Shown here in pieces: positions 1 through 12,710 of a DNA stretch of 14,947 bases. Positions within the stretch are counted from its first letter, which is position 1. Every line of letters begins with the position of its first letter. The stretch is from a virus (taxonomy: Duplodnaviria; Heunggongvirae; Uroviricota; Caudoviricetes): the IMG/VR virus record IMGVR_UViG_2778261635_000005; one strand, 5' to 3'. The notes beneath the pieces are model-generated. The model saw only the letters and a list, made by a program, of their open reading frames with translations, made no database searches and was not told the origin of the DNA. The position numbers and the translations under genes were made by a program.

Positions 1-1284
1 TTACAGACTTCTGGAAGGTTGCGCAGCTCTTACAACACGCGGTTGATCTTCCGCAGCGTCTTCCAGCGCACTTAAATCACGGTCTTTCACCTCTGGCATT
101 TTCAGCGCAGAGATTAAACCAATCACTGAATATGCCATGATCATAATGGCGATCGGATACCAGGATTCCGTCATGGTGCAGAAAATACCCGCCAGGATAG
201 GACCAAAACCGGAAGCGATAAGACCACCAATTTCTTTAGAAATAGCCATCCGGGTAAAGCGGTTTTTACAGCCGAACATTTCTGCCATGGTAATGTTTTC
301 CAGAGCAAATAATCCCAGCACCGCACAGTTATGAATCACAATCAGTGCAACCATAATGGTGCTCGGGGCATAGCTTTTATCTACAATGATAGAAAGCATT
401 GGCCATGCCAGCACAATCGCGGAGGTATTCATAATAATATACGGGATCCGGCGACCAATTTTATCGGATAACCAACCAAGGAACGGAATGGTCATAAAGC
501 CGAGAATCGAACTGATCATCAATGCATCTGTTGGAATTGCTTTGTTAAACAATAACGTCTGCACTAAATAGCCTGCAAGGAAAGTCTGAATTAACCCGGA
601 GTTACCCGCCTGACCAAAACGCAGCCCTGTTGCCAGCCAGAAGGATTTGCTCTGGAACATGCTACCAGCAGGTGCAGGTTTTGCTGTCGGTTGGTTACTG
701 TCGTTAACCTTCTCAAAGACCGGGCTTTCTTTCAGATTCATACGCAACCAGATAGCAAAGACCATCACGACAACGCTCGCCAGGAACGGTATACGCCATC
801 CCCACGCCAGCAGTTCCTCTTTACTGAGAATGAAGAACATAAAGGCCCAGATTGCCGTTGCGCTCAAGGTTCCGCAGTTAGTTCCCATAGCCACAAATGA
901 GGAGATAATTCCGCGCTTACCTTTTGGCGCATATTCCGCCAGCATCGTACCGGCACCGGAAATTTCCGCACCTGCACCCAACCCCTGAATAATACGCAAC
1001 GTCACCAGCAAGATGGGTGCAAAAACACCAATCTGTGCATAGGTCGGTAACACACCAATTAAGGTGGTACAGATCCCCATCATGGTGATGGTAATAAAGA
1101 GCACTTTTTTACGCCCTATTCTGTCGCCCATTTTGCCGAAAATAAATGCTCCGACAATACGCGCCACATAACCTGCACCGTAGGTTCCCATTGCCAGAAT
1201 TAACGCCATTGCCGTTGATGATTCAGGAAAAAATATTTCATGAAACACTAACGCTGCGCCGAGCGAATATAACTGGAAATCCAT
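1..1284 (-). pseudogene. ydfJ: MFS transporter (metabolite:H+ symporter type), 5'-truncated remnant
   Basis: 427-aa ORF from the track with a multi-TM hydrophobic profile and MFS loop motif (FGKMGDRIGRKK). The ORF begins inside the conserved TM1 region (MDFQLY aligns with the E-W-F-D-F block of KgtP/ProP-type transporters) and an in-frame TGA lies two codons upstream of the ATG, so about 30-40 N-terminal residues and the native promoter are absent. Confidence 0.7.
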
Positions 1285-2304: not shown

Positions 2305-2620
2305 TATAATAAACTTACTTTTTTATCATTTTTCCACTTTAACAACATTTTGCTCCACTTTTCCACGACCAAACAACTTGAAATCTGGTTAAAATAACAC
2401 GCAACACTATTCTTCTTCCTTGAGTCCGCCCGGAACTCGAAAAACAAACCGAGTTAAAGCCATTTTTCACAAAATCGATTTTGGGTCTCACCAAAATTAC
2501 GGGGTTGCATACGCATTCGTTTATTTTCGAACGTGTACATACAAATATGCACAAAAATAATCAAAATTATTTTCTGAGATGCATTATGATATGAACACCA
2601 ATTTCGTATAGAGTCTCACT

Positions 2621-3211
2621 ATGTCTCGAATTTTTGCTTACTGTCGGATATCAACGCTGGATCAGACCACCGAAAATCAACGCCGGGAAATCGAAAGTGC
2701 AGGTTTTAAAATCAAACCTCAGCAAATAATCGAAGAACACATTAGCGGCTCAGCAGCAACCAGTGAGCGTCCTGGTTTTAACCGGTTGCTTGCTCGCCTG
2801 AAATGTGGTGATCAATTGATTGTGACAAAACTGGATCGCCTTGGTTGTAATGCAATGGATATCAGGAAAACAGTGGAACAACTGACCGAAACAGGTATCA
2901 GAGTGCATTGCTTAGCATTGGGGGGCATTGACCTGACCAGTCCAACAGGAAAAATGATGATGCAAGTAATTTCAGCAGTCGCTGAATTTGAACGAGACCT
3001 TTTACTTGAACGCACTCATTCCGGGATAGTAAGAGCCCGGGGCGCAGGGAAACGTTTTGGTCGACCACCTGTGTTAAATGAAGAACAGAAACAGGTGGTA
3101 TTCGAACGAATTAAGTCAGGTGTAAGTATAAGTGCCATTGCCCGGGAATTCAAAACCTCGCGGCAAACCATTTTAAGAGCCAAAGCAAAACTTCAGACAC
3201 CTGACATATAA
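2621..3211 (+). CDS. pinQ: Serine recombinase (resolvase/invertase family), Pin-like
   Basis: 196-aa ORF; N-terminal catalytic region YCRISTLDQ (catalytic Ser), KLDRLG and GRPP motifs, C-terminal HTH ([18 protein letters not shown]); typical small serine recombinase architecture. Confidence 0.9.
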
Positions 3212-3216
3212 AAAAT

Positions 3217-3232
3217 AATCTCGGTGTGAGAT
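3217..3232. terminator. Weak hairpin between convergent pinQ and tfaQ (possible bidirectional terminator)
   Basis: ATCTC-GGTGT-GAGAT inverted repeat immediately after the pinQ stop, flanked by an A-run on the plus strand (a T-run on the minus strand). The stem is only 5 bp. Confidence 0.2.
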
Positions 3233-3308
3233 GCTTTACGTCTTCCAAGCCACCTTCCTTGCCGTAAATGGAAAGATACATCTAATTATAGAATTTATAT
3301 GTTTTACC

Positions 3309-3884
3309 CTACGGCAGTGCTGGCCATTCAATATCCTGTGCAGTTGACGTATCAACACGGTTCAGCAATACCCGATACTTTTTCCATGCTTCCAGCAACG
3401 AGATTTCTTCCTCCGTTGCAATTTCCAGATCTGCAGCATCCTGAAGCGGCGCAATATGCTCACTGGCTACCTGCATCAGGCTGTTTTTTGTTTCTTCCGC
3501 CTCCCGGATCCGGAACAGTTTTTCTGCTTCCGTATCCTTCACCCAGGCTGTGCCGTTCCACTTCTGATATTCCCCTCCCGGCGATAACCAGGTAACATTT
3601 TCCGGTAACGGACCGAGTTCAGAAATAAATAACGCGTCGCCGGAAGCCACGTCATAAACCGTTTTACCCCGATGATCTTCAACGAGATGCCACGATGCCT
3701 CATCACTGTTGAAAACAGCCACGAAGCCTGCCGGAATATCTGGCGGTGCAATATCGATACTGTTTGCTGGCAGACCTGTATGAGGCGGAATATATGCGTC
3801 ACCTTCACCAATAAATTCATTAGTTCCGGCCAGCAGATTATAAATTTTTATGGTCCGTGGTTGTTCACTCATTCTGAATGCCAT
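3309..3884 (-). CDS. tfaQ: Tail fibre assembly protein (lambda Tfa-like chaperone)
   Basis: 191-aa [37 protein letters not shown]... recognised as the lambdoid Tfa family; its start overlaps the stop of the upstream tail-fibre ORF (TAATG), as in stf-tfa pairs. Confidence 0.9.
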
Positions 3885-6064
3885 TATGCAAGCCTCACAA
3901 TATAGTTAAATGCGATGTTTTTGACGGTGTTTTCCGCGTTACCAGCAGCGTTAACGGTGATGGTATGTCCATGTGAACCAATCGCAACGGAGTGCGTATG
4001 AGCACCAATACCGACAGTATGTGCGTGTGCACCTGCGCTTGCAGCAGTACCCGATACAGAGTGCGTATGAGCGCCTGCAGAAGAAGTGTTAACACTGTAT
4101 TTAGAATAATCAGGTGATCCACTTCCCGGAGCACCACTGGAACCACCTGAAACAAATGTCATCGAATGGGTATGTGCACCGGCTGAAGCAGCCGTACCGC
4201 TAACACTATGGGTATGCGCACCAGTGTTATTCGTGGATTTAGTGCCGTAATCAAACGACGATGTGGTTTTCGTCCCCAAATCCGTACTGGATACGCTGGC
4301 GCTGTGGGTGTGTGATTTAATGCCGTCCTGTTCCTGAGACAATACGGCTCGATCACTGGCGGGCTTGCCCTTAATCGTCCAGCCACGCATATCAGGGATC
4401 ACGCCTGACGGATAAGCGGCTGCAAGTTTCGGGTAAGCAGATTTGTCAAAAGTCTGCCCCTGCATCAGGGCATAACCAGACGGAACGGTATCTGATGGCC
4501 ACGGGATTGGTGCACCGACTGGATAAAACTCTGCAGGAGGATGAGCCGAGGTGTAAAGCTGCGCCCACGGCGACCAGTTTGCGTCGGTCGTATCCCGTCG
4601 TGAACGAATAAATGCCGGAGCATGAGCACCGCTTGTACCACTCCAGCCGATGAGTAACTCACCTTCGCCAACGGCTGTCATCCCTTTCAGGTGAATGATA
4701 TTTCCATACGCTGTTGGATATCCGTTGTTATACACCTCGTATAACTCAAGACCTGTTGCCCCCTGCGTATTGTCTGTCAGCGCGGTTACCTGAACCACAA
4801 AACGGCGATGACGTCCCGCCTGCACATCCACTGTCGCCACAAGGAAATTAATGCCATCCGGCACACTGCGGGAAGGAACTGGCTCTGCCCGCTGCTCAAG
4901 CAGTTCACTTTTTCGTTGCTCCATGCTGGCACGAGGAAGATAAGGCAATCCCCAGTCGGTGTTGATAACCGCCCTGAGTGTTTCTTCGCTTCCTGTCGCT
5001 TCATACTCCTGTTCTGCAGTCAGTAATTTGTAAACCAGTTGCGCCCAGGTCTGATACGCAGCAGCTGGCCCTTCCATCCAGAAACTGGCGATACGGGAGC
5101 GGCGCGGTTCACCGGAAACGTTGCCGTTACGATCAATGACCTGACCTTCACGCAACCAGACTCCTGCACTATTGAGCTCACGCTTTTTCTCCGCAGTGAT
5201 AATGCCGCTGCAGTGCGGGCAAAGTAGATACGCCGCCTCACTGGCTTTAAAGGGATCCGGTTCATTACGGTAGCCGGTCATGGCATCCATGGCTGGCTGA
5301 AAATATTCACCGCAGTGCGGACATGACCAGTACCAGCGGCGGCGGTCACCACGATTGTAAAGGGAAAGAATACCAGTCGTCGGTGGCGCTTCATGAGGCG
5401 ACTTACGTCGCCATTTGCTGTCGCAGATGTCACGTCCCGGCGAGCTCTCCACCAGAGTCATCCCGGCGGACATAAATGTGGTGGTACGTTTTGAGGCCAG
5501 GGAGAAACCATCACCCTCGCTGTCGATATTCTCCGGAAAACGGTCGTAATCGGTTAAGGCGACAAACCGGTAATCCGACGACGACATAATGTTGACCGAG
5601 GGCCAACCAATTTTAAGGAACGAGCCATCCCTGAACGTCTTATCATGGACATTATTGTCGTTACGACGTGGACTCATTCTTTTCTTTACCGCCGCACTGC
5701 TTCTGAACGTTCTGTCGAGGCGCTTTTTAGAATGCTCGCGGGCCTTATCTTCGGTCATCTGCACAACGAGCATGTCCGAAGGATCGCAAACGATGGTATA
5801 GACAATCCATCCATCGATCAGACCAATGGTCTTCCCTGTTCGCGCAGGACCAACAAAAATCACCGCATCGTATTCACGCGATGCCAGGCAGTTCATGGGC
5901 TCAATGATGTAGGGTGTCAGTTCAGGATCCCATGGCACCGAGTTACCAGCCCCCTTGGGAACACGCATGAATTTTTTAACAGCCTCCGAAATCGGCATGC
6001 GACGTGGTGGGGAAAATCCTGCCGATATGTCCCTTCCCAAATTTCGGGCTGATGAAAAACCCAT
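3884..6064 (-). CDS. stfQ: Chimeric ORF: large terminase (gpA-like) N-terminal about 430 aa fused in frame to a side-tail-fibre C-terminal region
   Basis: 726-aa ORF with strong AGGAGG RBS. The N-terminal part has Walker A GPARTGKT (residues 72-79) and two CPHC motifs (248-251, 282-285) in the lambda gpA arrangement. The C-terminal part has a tail-collar-like block ([23 protein letters not shown]...DMRGW) and seven HxH motifs typical of fibre tips. The gene symbol refers to the tail-fibre portion; the reference annotation may split this ORF differently. Confidence 0.8.
3962..4315 (-). repeat. HxH-motif repeat region encoding the tail-fibre distal tip
   Basis: Seven His-x-His motifs (SHTHS, GAHTHS x4, GAHAHT, GSHGHT) in residues 584-701 of the fusion ORF; the 18-aa block [18 protein letters not shown] occurs twice with clearly different codons. 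Confidence 0.6.
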
Positions 6065-6072
6065 TATTCCTC

Positions 6073-6630
6073 CTAGAGACTCTCTCCTTCCTCATCAGGA
6101 ATTAATTCAGCAGCACAAGCCTCGTAGGATTTTTCCTGAAGAGTGTATCGCAGGTCATCAATTGCCTGCTGTACAACGCCGACGGCCTGAGGAGTCAGGG
6201 CGCAATCGCGTTCAAGAACATCCGGAATTGTCTCCAGAACCTGGACGACAGCCTTTCTCATGGACGAATAGACGATGACTACTTCATCAACGGGGATGAG
6301 TTTTCGCTGCTCCTTTTCCAGCTTGATCCTTTCATTTTCAGACTGGTACCAGTCCTTTCTCTCTTTCGGCTCCATACGGGATGGATCATGAACAGAGTCT
6401 GCTGCCTCATGCTTCACACTAAACAGGGCTGGCCCGACATGCTGCAGGGCGTAAACGGGGTTCCCCCTGACAGTCGCAGCCACAGGAGTGTTGGCCGCGA
6501 GAAGCCGTTTTTTTACTGTGTCCCGGTGAAGCCCAAAGGCCTCAGCGATTTTAAAAACACTCCAGTAATAAGCATCACCGATCCCGCTCACATTTGACAT
6601 AAGCAACTCCATCTGGCAGGTGAAAATCAT
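6073..6630 (-). CDS. nohA: Terminase small subunit (lambda Nu1-like DNA packaging protein)
   Basis: Track ORF of 185 aa with an N-terminal winged-HTH-like segment ([23 protein letters not shown]) and overall Nu1-like layout. The RBS-supported start is the internal ATG at 6600 (GGAG 6 nt upstream, product MSNVSG..., 175 aa). Lies between the cos site and the gpA-like ORF as in lambda. Confidence 0.8.
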
Positions 6631-8889: not shown

Positions 8890-9096
8890 CTTCATTTTCA
8901 CTTTTTTAAATCCAACGACAGACGGCTGGCATTTAAGTATTGTGAAATATTATCAAATGTAATCATCATTGATTTACAAAAGATACATTTTGCCCCGAAA
9001 GGATTCATGTCAGAAACATCAAAAGATGATGTTCTATACTGGGAACCATGACAACACGGGCATCTAAAGTGAATATGGTTTGTAATATTGTCTACC

Positions 9097-9309
9097 TCAA
9101 AGCGCCACTACATGAACAGCGGCAGGACCTTTAGGTCCGTTCTCAATACCAAATTCAACTTCCTGATTCTCAGTTAATGTTTTGAAATCGTTGCTCTGAA
9201 TTGCTGAGAAATGGACAAACACATCTTTGCTGCCATCTTTCGGCGTGATGAAACCAAAACCTTTTTCAGGGTTAAACCATTTCACTAAACCAGTCATTTT
9301 GTTAGACAT
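9097..9309 (-). CDS. cspI: Cold shock protein, CspA family
   Basis: 70-aa [41 protein letters not shown]... with RNP1 (KGFGFI) and RNP2 (VFVHF) motifs; AAGG RBS 7 nt upstream. Confidence 0.95.
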
Positions 9310-9418
9310 AATTATTACCTTTTGAAGAAATTAGCCCTTGGGCAGAATGGTCCGAAAAAAAATATCAGAGAGAAAAACCAACAAGGAAATCTCAAGAGGT
9401 ACAAATAATAAAATTATA
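9310..9418 (-). promoter_or_regulatory. cspI promoter and 5' UTR (candidate -10 TATAAT at 9418-9413)
   Basis: Perfect TATAAT about 100 nt upstream of the cspI ATG on the minus strand; CspA-family genes typically have long 5' UTRs. No clear -35. Confidence 0.35.
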
Positions 9419-9672
9419 ACAATGACTGCTTCAGATAAATTTGTAACAAACCAGAACACCATTAACGCATGATTAACCACCCATAGCAAGGATTACTTTT
9501 GTAAAGAAAAACACAGCAATGAAAGAATAGCTTTATTTATTAATAATAACGTGTCATTCTGATTAAGACCTTTTATCTTACCCTTAAGATTTCAGGAATT
9601 TTGGCTCATGGAAGAGTCCTTTTTATTTAAATTTTACATTCCGCGATGTAAATGTTCCGATTTAATATTACC

Positions 9673-10696
<1,024 letters not shown>

Positions 10697-11699: not shown

Positions 11700-11981
11700 T
11701 GAGATTGTGGTGCTTTTTGTGGGAGTCATCCACTTACGCACTTTGTTTTGCCATGCCAGCAGTTAGCTTCTGCTGTAAAACTATTCATGCAGCAAACCTG
11801 CACTTCACCACAATGGTTAGCATACTTTTCCTGATTAAGATTTTGCCAAATATGCTGGCCATTGTTTCATGTATTGGACCTCCTTAATTTTTATTAAAGA
11901 AATCCAATATTCACTACTCTGTCCGTATCTCTACTCAGGCATCAGCCTTCTTCGTTATCGTATACAGACGAGCGATGAATT

Positions 11982-12197
11982 TTAATCAGTAATGATGACA
12001 TTTGCTGCTGCAGGACCTTTAGCACCACTCTCTATAGAGAAGGTAACCTTTTGACCTTCAAATAAGGTTCGATAATTATCATTCTGAATCGCAGAAAAAT
12101 GCACAAACACATCTTTACTACCATCAACAGGAGAAATAAAGCCGAAACCTTTATCAGCGTTAAACCATTTTACTAAACCAGTCATTTTATTTGACAT
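11982..12197 (-). CDS. cspB: Cold shock protein, CspA family
   Basis: 71-aa [41 protein letters not shown]... with RNP motifs; AAGGA RBS 7 nt upstream. Confidence 0.95.
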
Positions 12198-12360
12198 TCT
12201 ACATTCCTTAACTTGAGCCTTTCGGCATAAATGGTTTGCATAACAGAAACGACTTCGTACTTAATTGGAGAGACTCAAAGAAGGAATAAGTGAATAACAC
12301 CTGAAATGAGAACTGCTTTAGTAAACTACTTCGTATATCGTCTGTTCTTCAAACCGACGC
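12198..12360 (-). promoter_or_regulatory. cspB promoter and long 5' UTR (candidate -10 TTAATG near 12359-12354)
   Basis: About 150-nt leader between a cspA-like -10 (TTAATG, preceded by TTGCTT at about 18 bp) and the ATG; consistent with the long 5' UTRs of cold-inducible csp genes. Confidence 0.35.
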
Positions 12361-12497: not shown

Positions 12498-12710
12498 TTG
12501 TCCCGTAAAATGACAGGAATTGTCAAAACCTTTGACGGCAAAAGCGGCAAGGGTCTTATCACCCCATCCGATGGTCGTATCGATGTCCAGCTTCATGTTT
12601 CAGCGCTCAATCTCCGCGATGCAGAAGAAATTACCACCGGATTACGCGTGGAATTTTGCCGGATAAATGGTCTGCGTGGCCCTTCAGCTGCCAATGTTTA
12701 CCTTTCATGA
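12498..12710 (+). CDS. cspF: Cold shock protein homolog, CspA family
   Basis: 70-aa track [43 protein letters not shown]...; initiates at TTG with AAGGA 7 nt upstream; divergent from cspB. Confidence 0.9.

Follow-up and report, generated by a model that had tools for sequence, protein, structure and literature searches.

How did a single reading frame come to hold the front of a large terminase and the tip of a side tail fibre, and why does the join between them lie where it does? Both questions are raised by a 14,947-nucleotide (nt) stretch of DNA, the Caudoviricetes record IMGVR_UViG_2778261635_000005 of IMG/VR, which we refer to at its full length as the window. This stretch forms the ydfJ-proximal end of a cryptic lambdoid prophage of the Qin type in Escherichia coli (99% match to Qin loci over 97–99% of its length), and the open reading frame (ORF) in question, of 726 codons, lies between the tail-fibre assembly gene tfaQ and a small terminase gene (terS). 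This hybrid of the large terminase gene (terL) and the side-tail-fibre gene (stf) is very probably a deletion scar in the prophage resident in ydfJ. Its stf-side end falls on a TA dinucleotide, called site J below, at which at least 20 different deletions in lambdoid prophages of E. coli have one of their ends and for which we infer a recombinase-like exchange.

Composition of the hybrid reading frame

The ORF and the features that define it are as follows, with amino acids (aa) counted from its own start.

3884..6064, minus strand: hybrid ORF of 726 codons, terL/stf fusion
4791..6064, minus strand: terL-derived part, aa 1 to ~425, with the complete GpA ATPase domain and the first third of the nuclease domain
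5828..5851, minus strand: Walker A box GPARTGKT, aa 72–79, read from the translation
4785..4790: deletion junction GTTACC, a 6-nt microhomology common to both parents
3884..4784, minus strand: stf-derived part, aa ~428–726 plus the stop codon, distal tail-fibre tip
4373–4516: Collar domain, aa 517–564 (Pfam tail Collar, E=5e-12)
~3965–4312: seven HxH motifs (six HTH/HAH, one HGH), aa 586–700
6069..6074, minus strand: ribosome-binding site AGGAGG, overlapping the terS stop and 4 nt upstream of the ATG at 6064, read from the sequence

A preliminary description of the window had placed this ORF 8 nt after a Nu1-like gene and behind a strong AGGAGG. It had read the first ~430 residues as a large terminase with a Walker A box and two CPHC motifs, and the remainder, from about residue 440, as a distal tail-fibre region with seven HxH motifs and a stop overlapping the tfaQ start. 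All of these observations were borne out. The start codon at 6064 lies 8 nt past the stop (6073–6075) of terS, the upstream gene, which is of the DUF1441 type; the CPHC motifs are found at aa 248–251 and aa 282–285; and the stop codon TAA shares one base with the ATG of tfaQ (TAATG). Profile searches of each half, as proposed in that description, matched the predicted families. Pfam GpA_ATPase (GpA family, PF05876 and PF20454) aligned with aa 40–303 over profile positions 2–247 of 247 (E=4e-80), while GpA_nuclease aligned with aa 325–430 over positions 1–99 of 294 only (E=4e-26). PHROGs assigned aa 2–428 to large terminase and ~aa 425 to 726 to tail-fibre families.

Residues 1–427 are 100% identical to aa 1–427 of the intact, 699-aa TerL of the Qin-locus prophage of KD602. 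The complete endonuclease domain and C-terminal end of a terminase are missing, these being aa 428–699 of the intact protein, and the terL part is a fragment of a GpA-family member, presumably without function as a terminase. The Collar domain, the HxH repeats and a tfa gene overlapping the stop identify the other half as a distal Stf tip, of which aa 425–726 align with aa 708–1025 of the intact, 1025-aa Stf of PhiR42_1 at 83% identity. The N-terminal part and shaft of Stf (aa 1–707 of the intact protein) are missing, and a Pfam search of the ORF found no tail-fibre N-terminal domain.

The tip is itself variable. Positions 4075–4173, in the HxH-repeat region, have no alignment to the K-12, MB06021 or PSS-10 alleles, and the alignment to the PhiR42_1 Stf is gapped there; the tip in the window is 16–18 aa shorter than those of K-12, MB06021 and PSS-10. 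The fibre-tip module is polymorphic or mosaic even where the flanks of the Qin locus are more than 99% identical.

Parents, junction and missing DNA

Two separate parents account for the ORF. DNA at 4785–6064 is 99.7% identical to terL of the intact phage Tritos and DNA at 3884–4793 is 97–98% identical to stf and tfa of PhiR42_1-type phages, while no phage record covers both halves together. In a base-level alignment to both parents, position 4784 is stf-specific, 4785–4790 are shared and 4791 is terL-specific, which narrows the breakpoint from the 4700–4800 initially suggested to 4785–4790. The join connects terL, at codon 426/427, with stf, at codon 709, and the crossover dinucleotide, the TA of site J, is at 4787–4788.

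Between these two points Tritos holds the whole head/tail module, comprising adaptor, portal, capsid, head completion, tail, tape measure, tail tip and J genes, in keeping with the earlier proposal that the morphogenesis genes between A and stf were lost by an in-frame deletion. Nor do intact relatives encode the same contiguous protein, a finding that would have spoken against this proposal. The large terminase is intact and separate in Tritos (678 aa as annotated) and KD602 (699 aa), as well as in phage cdtI, and a separate 1025-aa Stf is encoded by phages such as PhiR42_1. Estimated from intact relatives, the lost DNA amounts to ~19 kb and comprises the rest of terL, the entire head/tail module, lom, and stf up to codon 707. 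Since the halves are 97–100% identical to intact phage genes, the composition of the fusion is not a chance product, and these comparisons support reading the ORF as an in-frame deletion scar. A single recombination event fused the two genes at the codons named above.

At least 13 contigs, each from a separate assembly, encode the exact 726-aa protein in an unchanging context, so that the junction is not an assembly artefact; GCA_958335155.1 is one example of an assembly with this allele. All 5,426 complete E. coli genomes searched lack its junction; complete genomes carry other scars at the Qin locus, listed here by strain and locus.

K-12 (L006): nohA joined to stf
STEC308 (L008): terL fragment of ~975 bp beside a tail-fibre fragment; left out of the base-level alignment
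MB06021 (L001): terL (1386) joined to stf
PSS-10 (L002): terL (1530), portal fragment, tape-measure fragment and stf
KD602, APEC O78 and others (L003): protease joined to stf

In all of the base-aligned loci (L001, L002, L003 and K-12), the stf-side end is identical to the nucleotide, reading ...TGTCAGCGCGG(T/C)-TA.

A recurrent deletion endpoint in stf

Site J is a nucleotide-precise deletion hot spot that gave rise, among others, to the fusion in the window. Metagenome and viral contig collections were scanned with a 27-mer anchor placed just inside the retained part of stf. The 73 metagenome loci so recovered divide into 58 with an intact stf and 15 truncated exactly at J (8 junction types). 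Viral contigs provided 101 loci, 86 of them intact, 14 truncated exactly at J (12 types) and one truncated 19 nt further on; over both scans, only one locus was truncated elsewhere in the next 25 nt. J is intact in 818 of the 5,426 complete genomes, and the retained side is present in 1,105–1,133. At least ~290 hold a J-truncated copy only, many of these being K-12 derivatives. Partial matches in the complete genomes stop at query position 81–82, which is the TA, and truncation within 80 nt inside J was seen in only 28 of them.

Approximately 20 different sequences are joined at this same TA of stf. Partners of the lambda type are nu1 (three variants), A (position 953), B, E (two positions), Z and I, while those of the Tritos type are terL (1280 and 1386), portal, protease/capsid, the end of the major tail gene, tape measure and tail L. 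Two more partners stand apart from these, namely the end of lom and, in a Rac context, a ParB-like gene beside trkG. J is also usable in the opposite direction: a scan with the constant-side flank recovered a locus (L214) that keeps the constant side of stf and continues, from the TA onwards, within tfa. Where stf has CA in place of the TA at J, none of 22 loci was truncated vs 14 of 101 for the TA allele (Fisher p=0.07), a contrast that is suggestive only.

J is absent from the stf of phage lambda itself, the lambda homology beginning ~270 nt downstream. The idea that J is a natural module boundary of intact fibres was rejected, as the site lies within a stretch of ~1 kb that is 98–99.9% conserved among 126 intact loci. 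Two loci (L133 and L178) have an intact J, yet their terL 1280 site is only 7.2 kb and 2.1 kb away, respectively; this spacing indicates that morphogenesis genes are also removed by deletions that do not use J.

Signature of the exchange

What distinguishes the partner sites is best seen when they are aligned on the crossover. Parental partner sequences could be reconstructed for 16 junction types, and TA was found exactly at the crossover in 15 of these. The tract shared between the parents is 2–7 nt long, often just the TA itself, and 6 nt in the window. At every junction, the base of J is kept at -1 and that of the partner at +2. This fixed arrangement argues for an exchange with a 2-bp rather than a 4-bp stagger.

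Aligned on the TA, the 15 partner sites have the consensus C-C-S-G-W-TA-W-C-C-G, which corresponds to the palindrome CGGW-TA-WCCG; J itself (CGGT-TA-CCCG) matches 9 of its 10 positions. A good example of a partner is the site at Tritos 8978, CGGTTATCCG. Partner sites were scored against the palindrome derived from the retained half of J, with 1,331 TA sites from the same phage regions as background, and exceeded that background in each comparison.

Both halves, 4 nt each: observed mean matches 4.3, background 2.4, p<1e-5
Lost half alone: observed mean matches 2.1, background 1.1, p=4e-4
Retained half alone: observed mean matches 2.3, background 1.3, p=6e-5

In the bases flanking the TA, partners favour A/T where J has T and C. 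Direct homology to J is therefore no explanation, the preference of the partners differing from J at -1 and +2. The consensus is confined to the inner 10 bp, and outer positions are without one. Taken together, the TA core and the flanks of dyad symmetry form a signature that points to an enzyme-catalysed exchange with a 2-bp stagger, of the kind known from serine recombinases, as far as this can be read from junction sequences. In the window, a site-directed recombinase of this kind would have acted on J as the strong site and on a weak pseudo-site in terL.

Crossovers at TA are not confined to J. They were seen at four of six junctions that do not involve it, namely tape measure to portal in L002, lambda K to A in L189, L145, and aaaD' to tfaD in the DLP12 prophage of K-12. 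A lambda-type site in A, TGGAA-TA-ACCGAC (lambda ~953–956), served as partner in two deletions, once with J (L114/L166) and once with a gene K site (L189, ~8044), and partner sites may thus also be recurrent.

Several other ways of producing such junctions were tried and rejected. Under a 4-bp stagger of the gyrase/topoisomerase IV type, one parent should supply both outer bases of WTAW, while the junctions always mix them. The integron-type G/TT crossover and IS608-type cleavage at TTAC do not apply, as the partner parents are without GTT and the base after the TA varies. Restriction and ligation would call for identical recognition sites, and the partner sites are degenerate. Folding z-scores at J are not below random, which disposes of a hairpin or slippage structure.

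Weighing an enzyme against other origins

Chance is the simplest rival to an enzyme. A single microhomology-mediated illegitimate recombination, by slippage or end joining at GTTACC and at an otherwise unremarkable site, would leave just the kind of 6-nt microhomology seen at the junction in the window, which is typical of RecA-independent deletions. Ordinary illegitimate events do occur in these prophages, as at junctions away from J with a 7-nt repeat (L002) or with CA (L138). We nonetheless consider this origin improbable for the present scar: the many partners of one stf TA mostly share just those 2 nt, endpoints in the neighbouring 25–80 nt are at least 10-fold rarer than at J, the palindromic consensus of the partners departs from J on either side of the TA, and there is no hairpin at J. 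Mobile elements deserve a similar hearing. Insertion sequences (IS) are a classic source of deletions that share a fixed end, a TA with a palindromic target consensus recalls the targets of IS630/mariner, and copies of IS2 and IS903B are present in some Qin loci. However, an IS was found at J in 0 of ~190 loci, a terminal inverted repeat is lacking, and the IS2 copies of some strains are located elsewhere than J. That an IS or transposon at J made fixed-end adjacent deletions, or that the junction is an artefact of assembly, is scarcely credible, given that J is inside the highly conserved stretch of intact stf and that the junction is identical in independent assemblies. Partners that were initially unidentified were all resolved to phage genes (lom, Z, FII, the ParB-like gene and K/I).

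A broader proposal, which we make tentatively and would stop short of calling probable, is that J is a preferred substrate of a TA-specific recombinase, presumably of the serine type and encoded by prophage or host. This enzyme would repeatedly delete head and tail genes from lambdoid prophages of E. coli, turning them into cryptic ones, and spare the tip, tfa and pin genes, and the scars of Qin and DLP12 would be products of the same reaction. A number of points weigh against a Pin-type mechanism or limit the analysis as a whole. No recombinase is tied to J, and all J partners found represent collinear deletions; inversions, which a symmetric TA core permits, were not seen among them. At one junction type (L154), TA is absent from the lambda proxy, which is 97% identical, and parental partner sequences are in general proxies taken from relatives. 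The anchored scans detect only endpoints near the J anchor, and the phylogenetic independence of all junction types is not proven. Finally, three loci (L166, L114 and L071) are truncated at J and have no pin-like ORF in the flanks examined, with none in 7.3 kb downstream of J in L166.

The last point bears on the most obvious candidate. PinQ, or PinR/PinQ-like enzymes in trans, may have catalysed a deletion between J and the terL pseudo-site, in the manner of Cin and Gin on quasi-sites. The pinQ gene is only 1.6 kb from J, and a strict 2-bp crossover fits the chemistry of serine recombinases. A pin gene is present in cis in 11 of the 13 junction types with enough flank vs 14 of 32 intact loci (p=0.02), an association confounded by prophage age and locus. 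The site of PinQ may differ from the pix sites of e14, since its closest solved relatives, Gin and the gamma-delta/Tn3 resolvases, are only distant ones, and about equally so. PinQ has been reported to be active, inverting the e14 P segment, but to act there on canonical pix sites (PMC12529663). J is unlike pix, gix and hix and has no partner site. A crossover site of the Hin/Gin/Cin/Pin type (26 bp with AAACC-NN-GGTTT at its centre and an AA/GA-type core, occurring in inverted pairs) was found neither at J nor elsewhere in the window, in L005 or in an intact stf, by a search that recovered the e14 pix sites as a positive control, and searches for an inverted- or direct-repeat partner of J, or for transposon-like ends, were likewise negative. 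The DLP12 prophage, which has a TA junction, lacks pin. In recombinases of this type, the helix-turn-helix domain binds outer site positions, and it is only in the inner 10 bp that a consensus exists. On balance, catalysis of this deletion by PinQ or its relatives appears unlikely, and PinQ-type action in trans is possible.

Two further observations concern pinQ and its place in the prophage. Apart from J itself, the closest match to the 26-bp site (15/26) is at 2637–2662, over the catalytic-serine codons of pinQ, where CAGCG and CCGAC flank a TA with the same spacing; this score is no better than chance given the size of the window. In L166, the space downstream of tfa (2398–5333), the position of pin in Qin, holds ORFs of 605 aa and 373 aa that might represent defence cargo.

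Fate of the hybrid protein

Does the fusion do anything? The ATPase domain is kept whole together with one third of the nuclease domain and the fibre tip, while aa 1–707 of the fibre are lost. The native ribosome-binding site, the close spacing to terS and the tfaQ overlap are all retained, and expression of the hybrid is possible. With the nuclease and C-terminal parts of the terminase and the N-terminal part of the fibre missing, the product would be expected to take no part in cos cutting, DNA packaging or the virion fibre. The likeliest reading is that of an inert hybrid, in frame by chance. Only 4 of 18 junction types are in frame with an upstream gene, which is the level of chance, and selection for fusion proteins is accordingly not seen. 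The frame of the stf tip is open in 29 of 32 truncated loci vs 118 of 123 intact loci, a pattern compatible with recent events, repair through recombination with incoming phages, or weak selection.

A domesticated and selected protein, such as a fibre-tip protein that blocks phage receptors, is highly unlikely in our estimation. Its appeal lies in the open frame and preserved coupling to the ribosome-binding site and tfaQ, in the spread of the identical protein over the contigs noted above, in the open tip frames of most truncated loci, and in a report that a chimeric Stf of e14 blocks adsorption of phage T2. Against these stand the chance level of in-frame junctions and the absence of the allele from all 5,426 complete genomes. 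In many other alleles, moreover, what precedes this tip is unrelated or out of frame, and most of the nuclease domain is gone, as is any N-terminal fibre part.

Comparison with known scars and recombination systems

The closest counterpart of the hybrid is nohA/stfQ (b1548/b1547) in the Qin prophage of K-12, which shares the ydfJ locus, the module of stf tip, tfaQ, pinQ and ydfK, and the very same TA on the stf side. The partner in K-12 is, however, the nu1/A overlap of a lambda-type packaging module, and the join is out of frame. Two ORFs result, one being nohA, ending in a foreign tail, and the other encoding a StfQ of 320 aa; they overlap by 50 bp around J (L006 8799–8848). The window differs in that its partner is codon 427 of a GpA-type terL beside a DUF1441 terS, joined in frame. 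Similar remnants are known from DLP12 and e14 of K-12, where a terminase-A fragment stands beside tail-fibre or replication genes and the morphogenesis module is lost. In DLP12, the terminase A fragment aaaD' abuts tfaD at a TA(T) crossover (L088 3355–3663); in e14, ymfN (oweE'-aaaE'; L009 171–1538) is annotated as a chimeric replication protein/terminase. Unlike the scar in the window, these lie in other prophages and involve other partner genes, without J. The intact counterparts are Qin-like phages (Escherichia phage Tritos, HannyBb and cdtI) and the PhiR42_1-type Stf, which provide the parental genes at 97–99.7% DNA identity; in contrast to the window, those phages hold complete terL and stf with a full head/tail module in between.

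Site-specific recombinases are known to make deletions with one fixed end when acting on secondary sites, as in the Int-promoted deletions of the lambda b region and in Cin and Gin acting on quasi-sites. The J junctions resemble these in having one constant end at a good site, variable ends at weak look-alikes, and the same central dinucleotide in both. They differ in that the Int, Cin and Gin cases have a known enzyme and a cognate site, while J matches no described crossover site; the J events are natural and spread over hundreds of genomes, whereas the former are laboratory isolates.

By itself, the hybrid ORF adds one new but unremarkable allele to a class of prophage scar already known from nohA/stfQ, aaaD'-tfaD and ymfN. 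Our literature searches found no description of an stf deletion hot spot and, as far as we found, J with its recombinase-like signature has not been described previously. De Paepe et al. (PMC3945230) offer only the older idea that stf-associated invertases drive tail-fibre exchange. Taken alone, the hybrid gene is one more pseudogene-like scar, which illustrates how annotation pipelines split or misname such ORFs. Of greater consequence is the recurrent breakpoint. Should prophages in E. coli decay largely through one TA-centred reaction at a defined site, their domestication would be partly enzymatic and predictable rather than random erosion, and the make-up of Qin and DLP12 as cryptic prophages of K-12 would be explained. 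J and its pseudo-site would then offer a concrete substrate in the search for an enzyme, as well as a marker with which to count independent decay events across E. coli lineages.

The Qin setting and minor features

The setting was annotated from near-identical loci in RefSeq and elsewhere, including K-12. The gene order is that of Qin, with integration in ydfJ followed by ydfK, pinQ, tfaQ, stf', packaging genes, cspI, rzpQ, rrrQ, essQ, cspB, cspF, Q and ydfU. Apart from the hybrid ORF, the genes at this end of the window are the following.

1..1284, minus strand: ydfJ', host transporter gene interrupted by Qin, marking the prophage end (annotation of K-12 and other genomes)
Between ydfJ' and pinQ: ydfK, positioned from gene order
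2621..3211, plus strand: pinQ, small serine recombinase, convergent with tfaQ (Pfam Resolvase and HTH_7)
3309..3884, minus strand: tfaQ, tail-fibre assembly chaperone (Pfam Caudo_TAP; RefSeq annotation of near-identical loci)
6073..6630, minus strand: terS of DUF1441 type (Pfam DUF1441; PHROG 141, terminase small subunit)

In the gene calls of RefSeq and others, terS encodes 175 aa (6073–6600). Beyond it lie, in order, a DUF1398 gene, cspI, rzpQ/rzoQ, rrrQ, ydfR, essQ, ynfU, cspB, cspF, the Q antiterminator gene and ydfU.

Some smaller features were noted in passing. The Rfam family IS009, a small-RNA candidate that stems from an old screen of intergenic regions, scores 221 bits at 3343–3541 (minus strand), well over its gathering score, and lies wholly within the coding sequence of tfaQ. 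The third cold-shock gene, cspF (12498–12710, plus strand), is without a match to a cspA-type leader. Two cspA-type thermoregulator 5' leaders are found on the minus strand, at 9070–9455 before cspI and at 11966–12358 before cspB. Embedded in another frame of rzpQ (9673–10170) is an ORF at 9723–9995 (minus strand) with a lipoprotein-like N-terminus (…LTSC…), which corresponds to rzoQ (Rz1) in the annotation of K-12.

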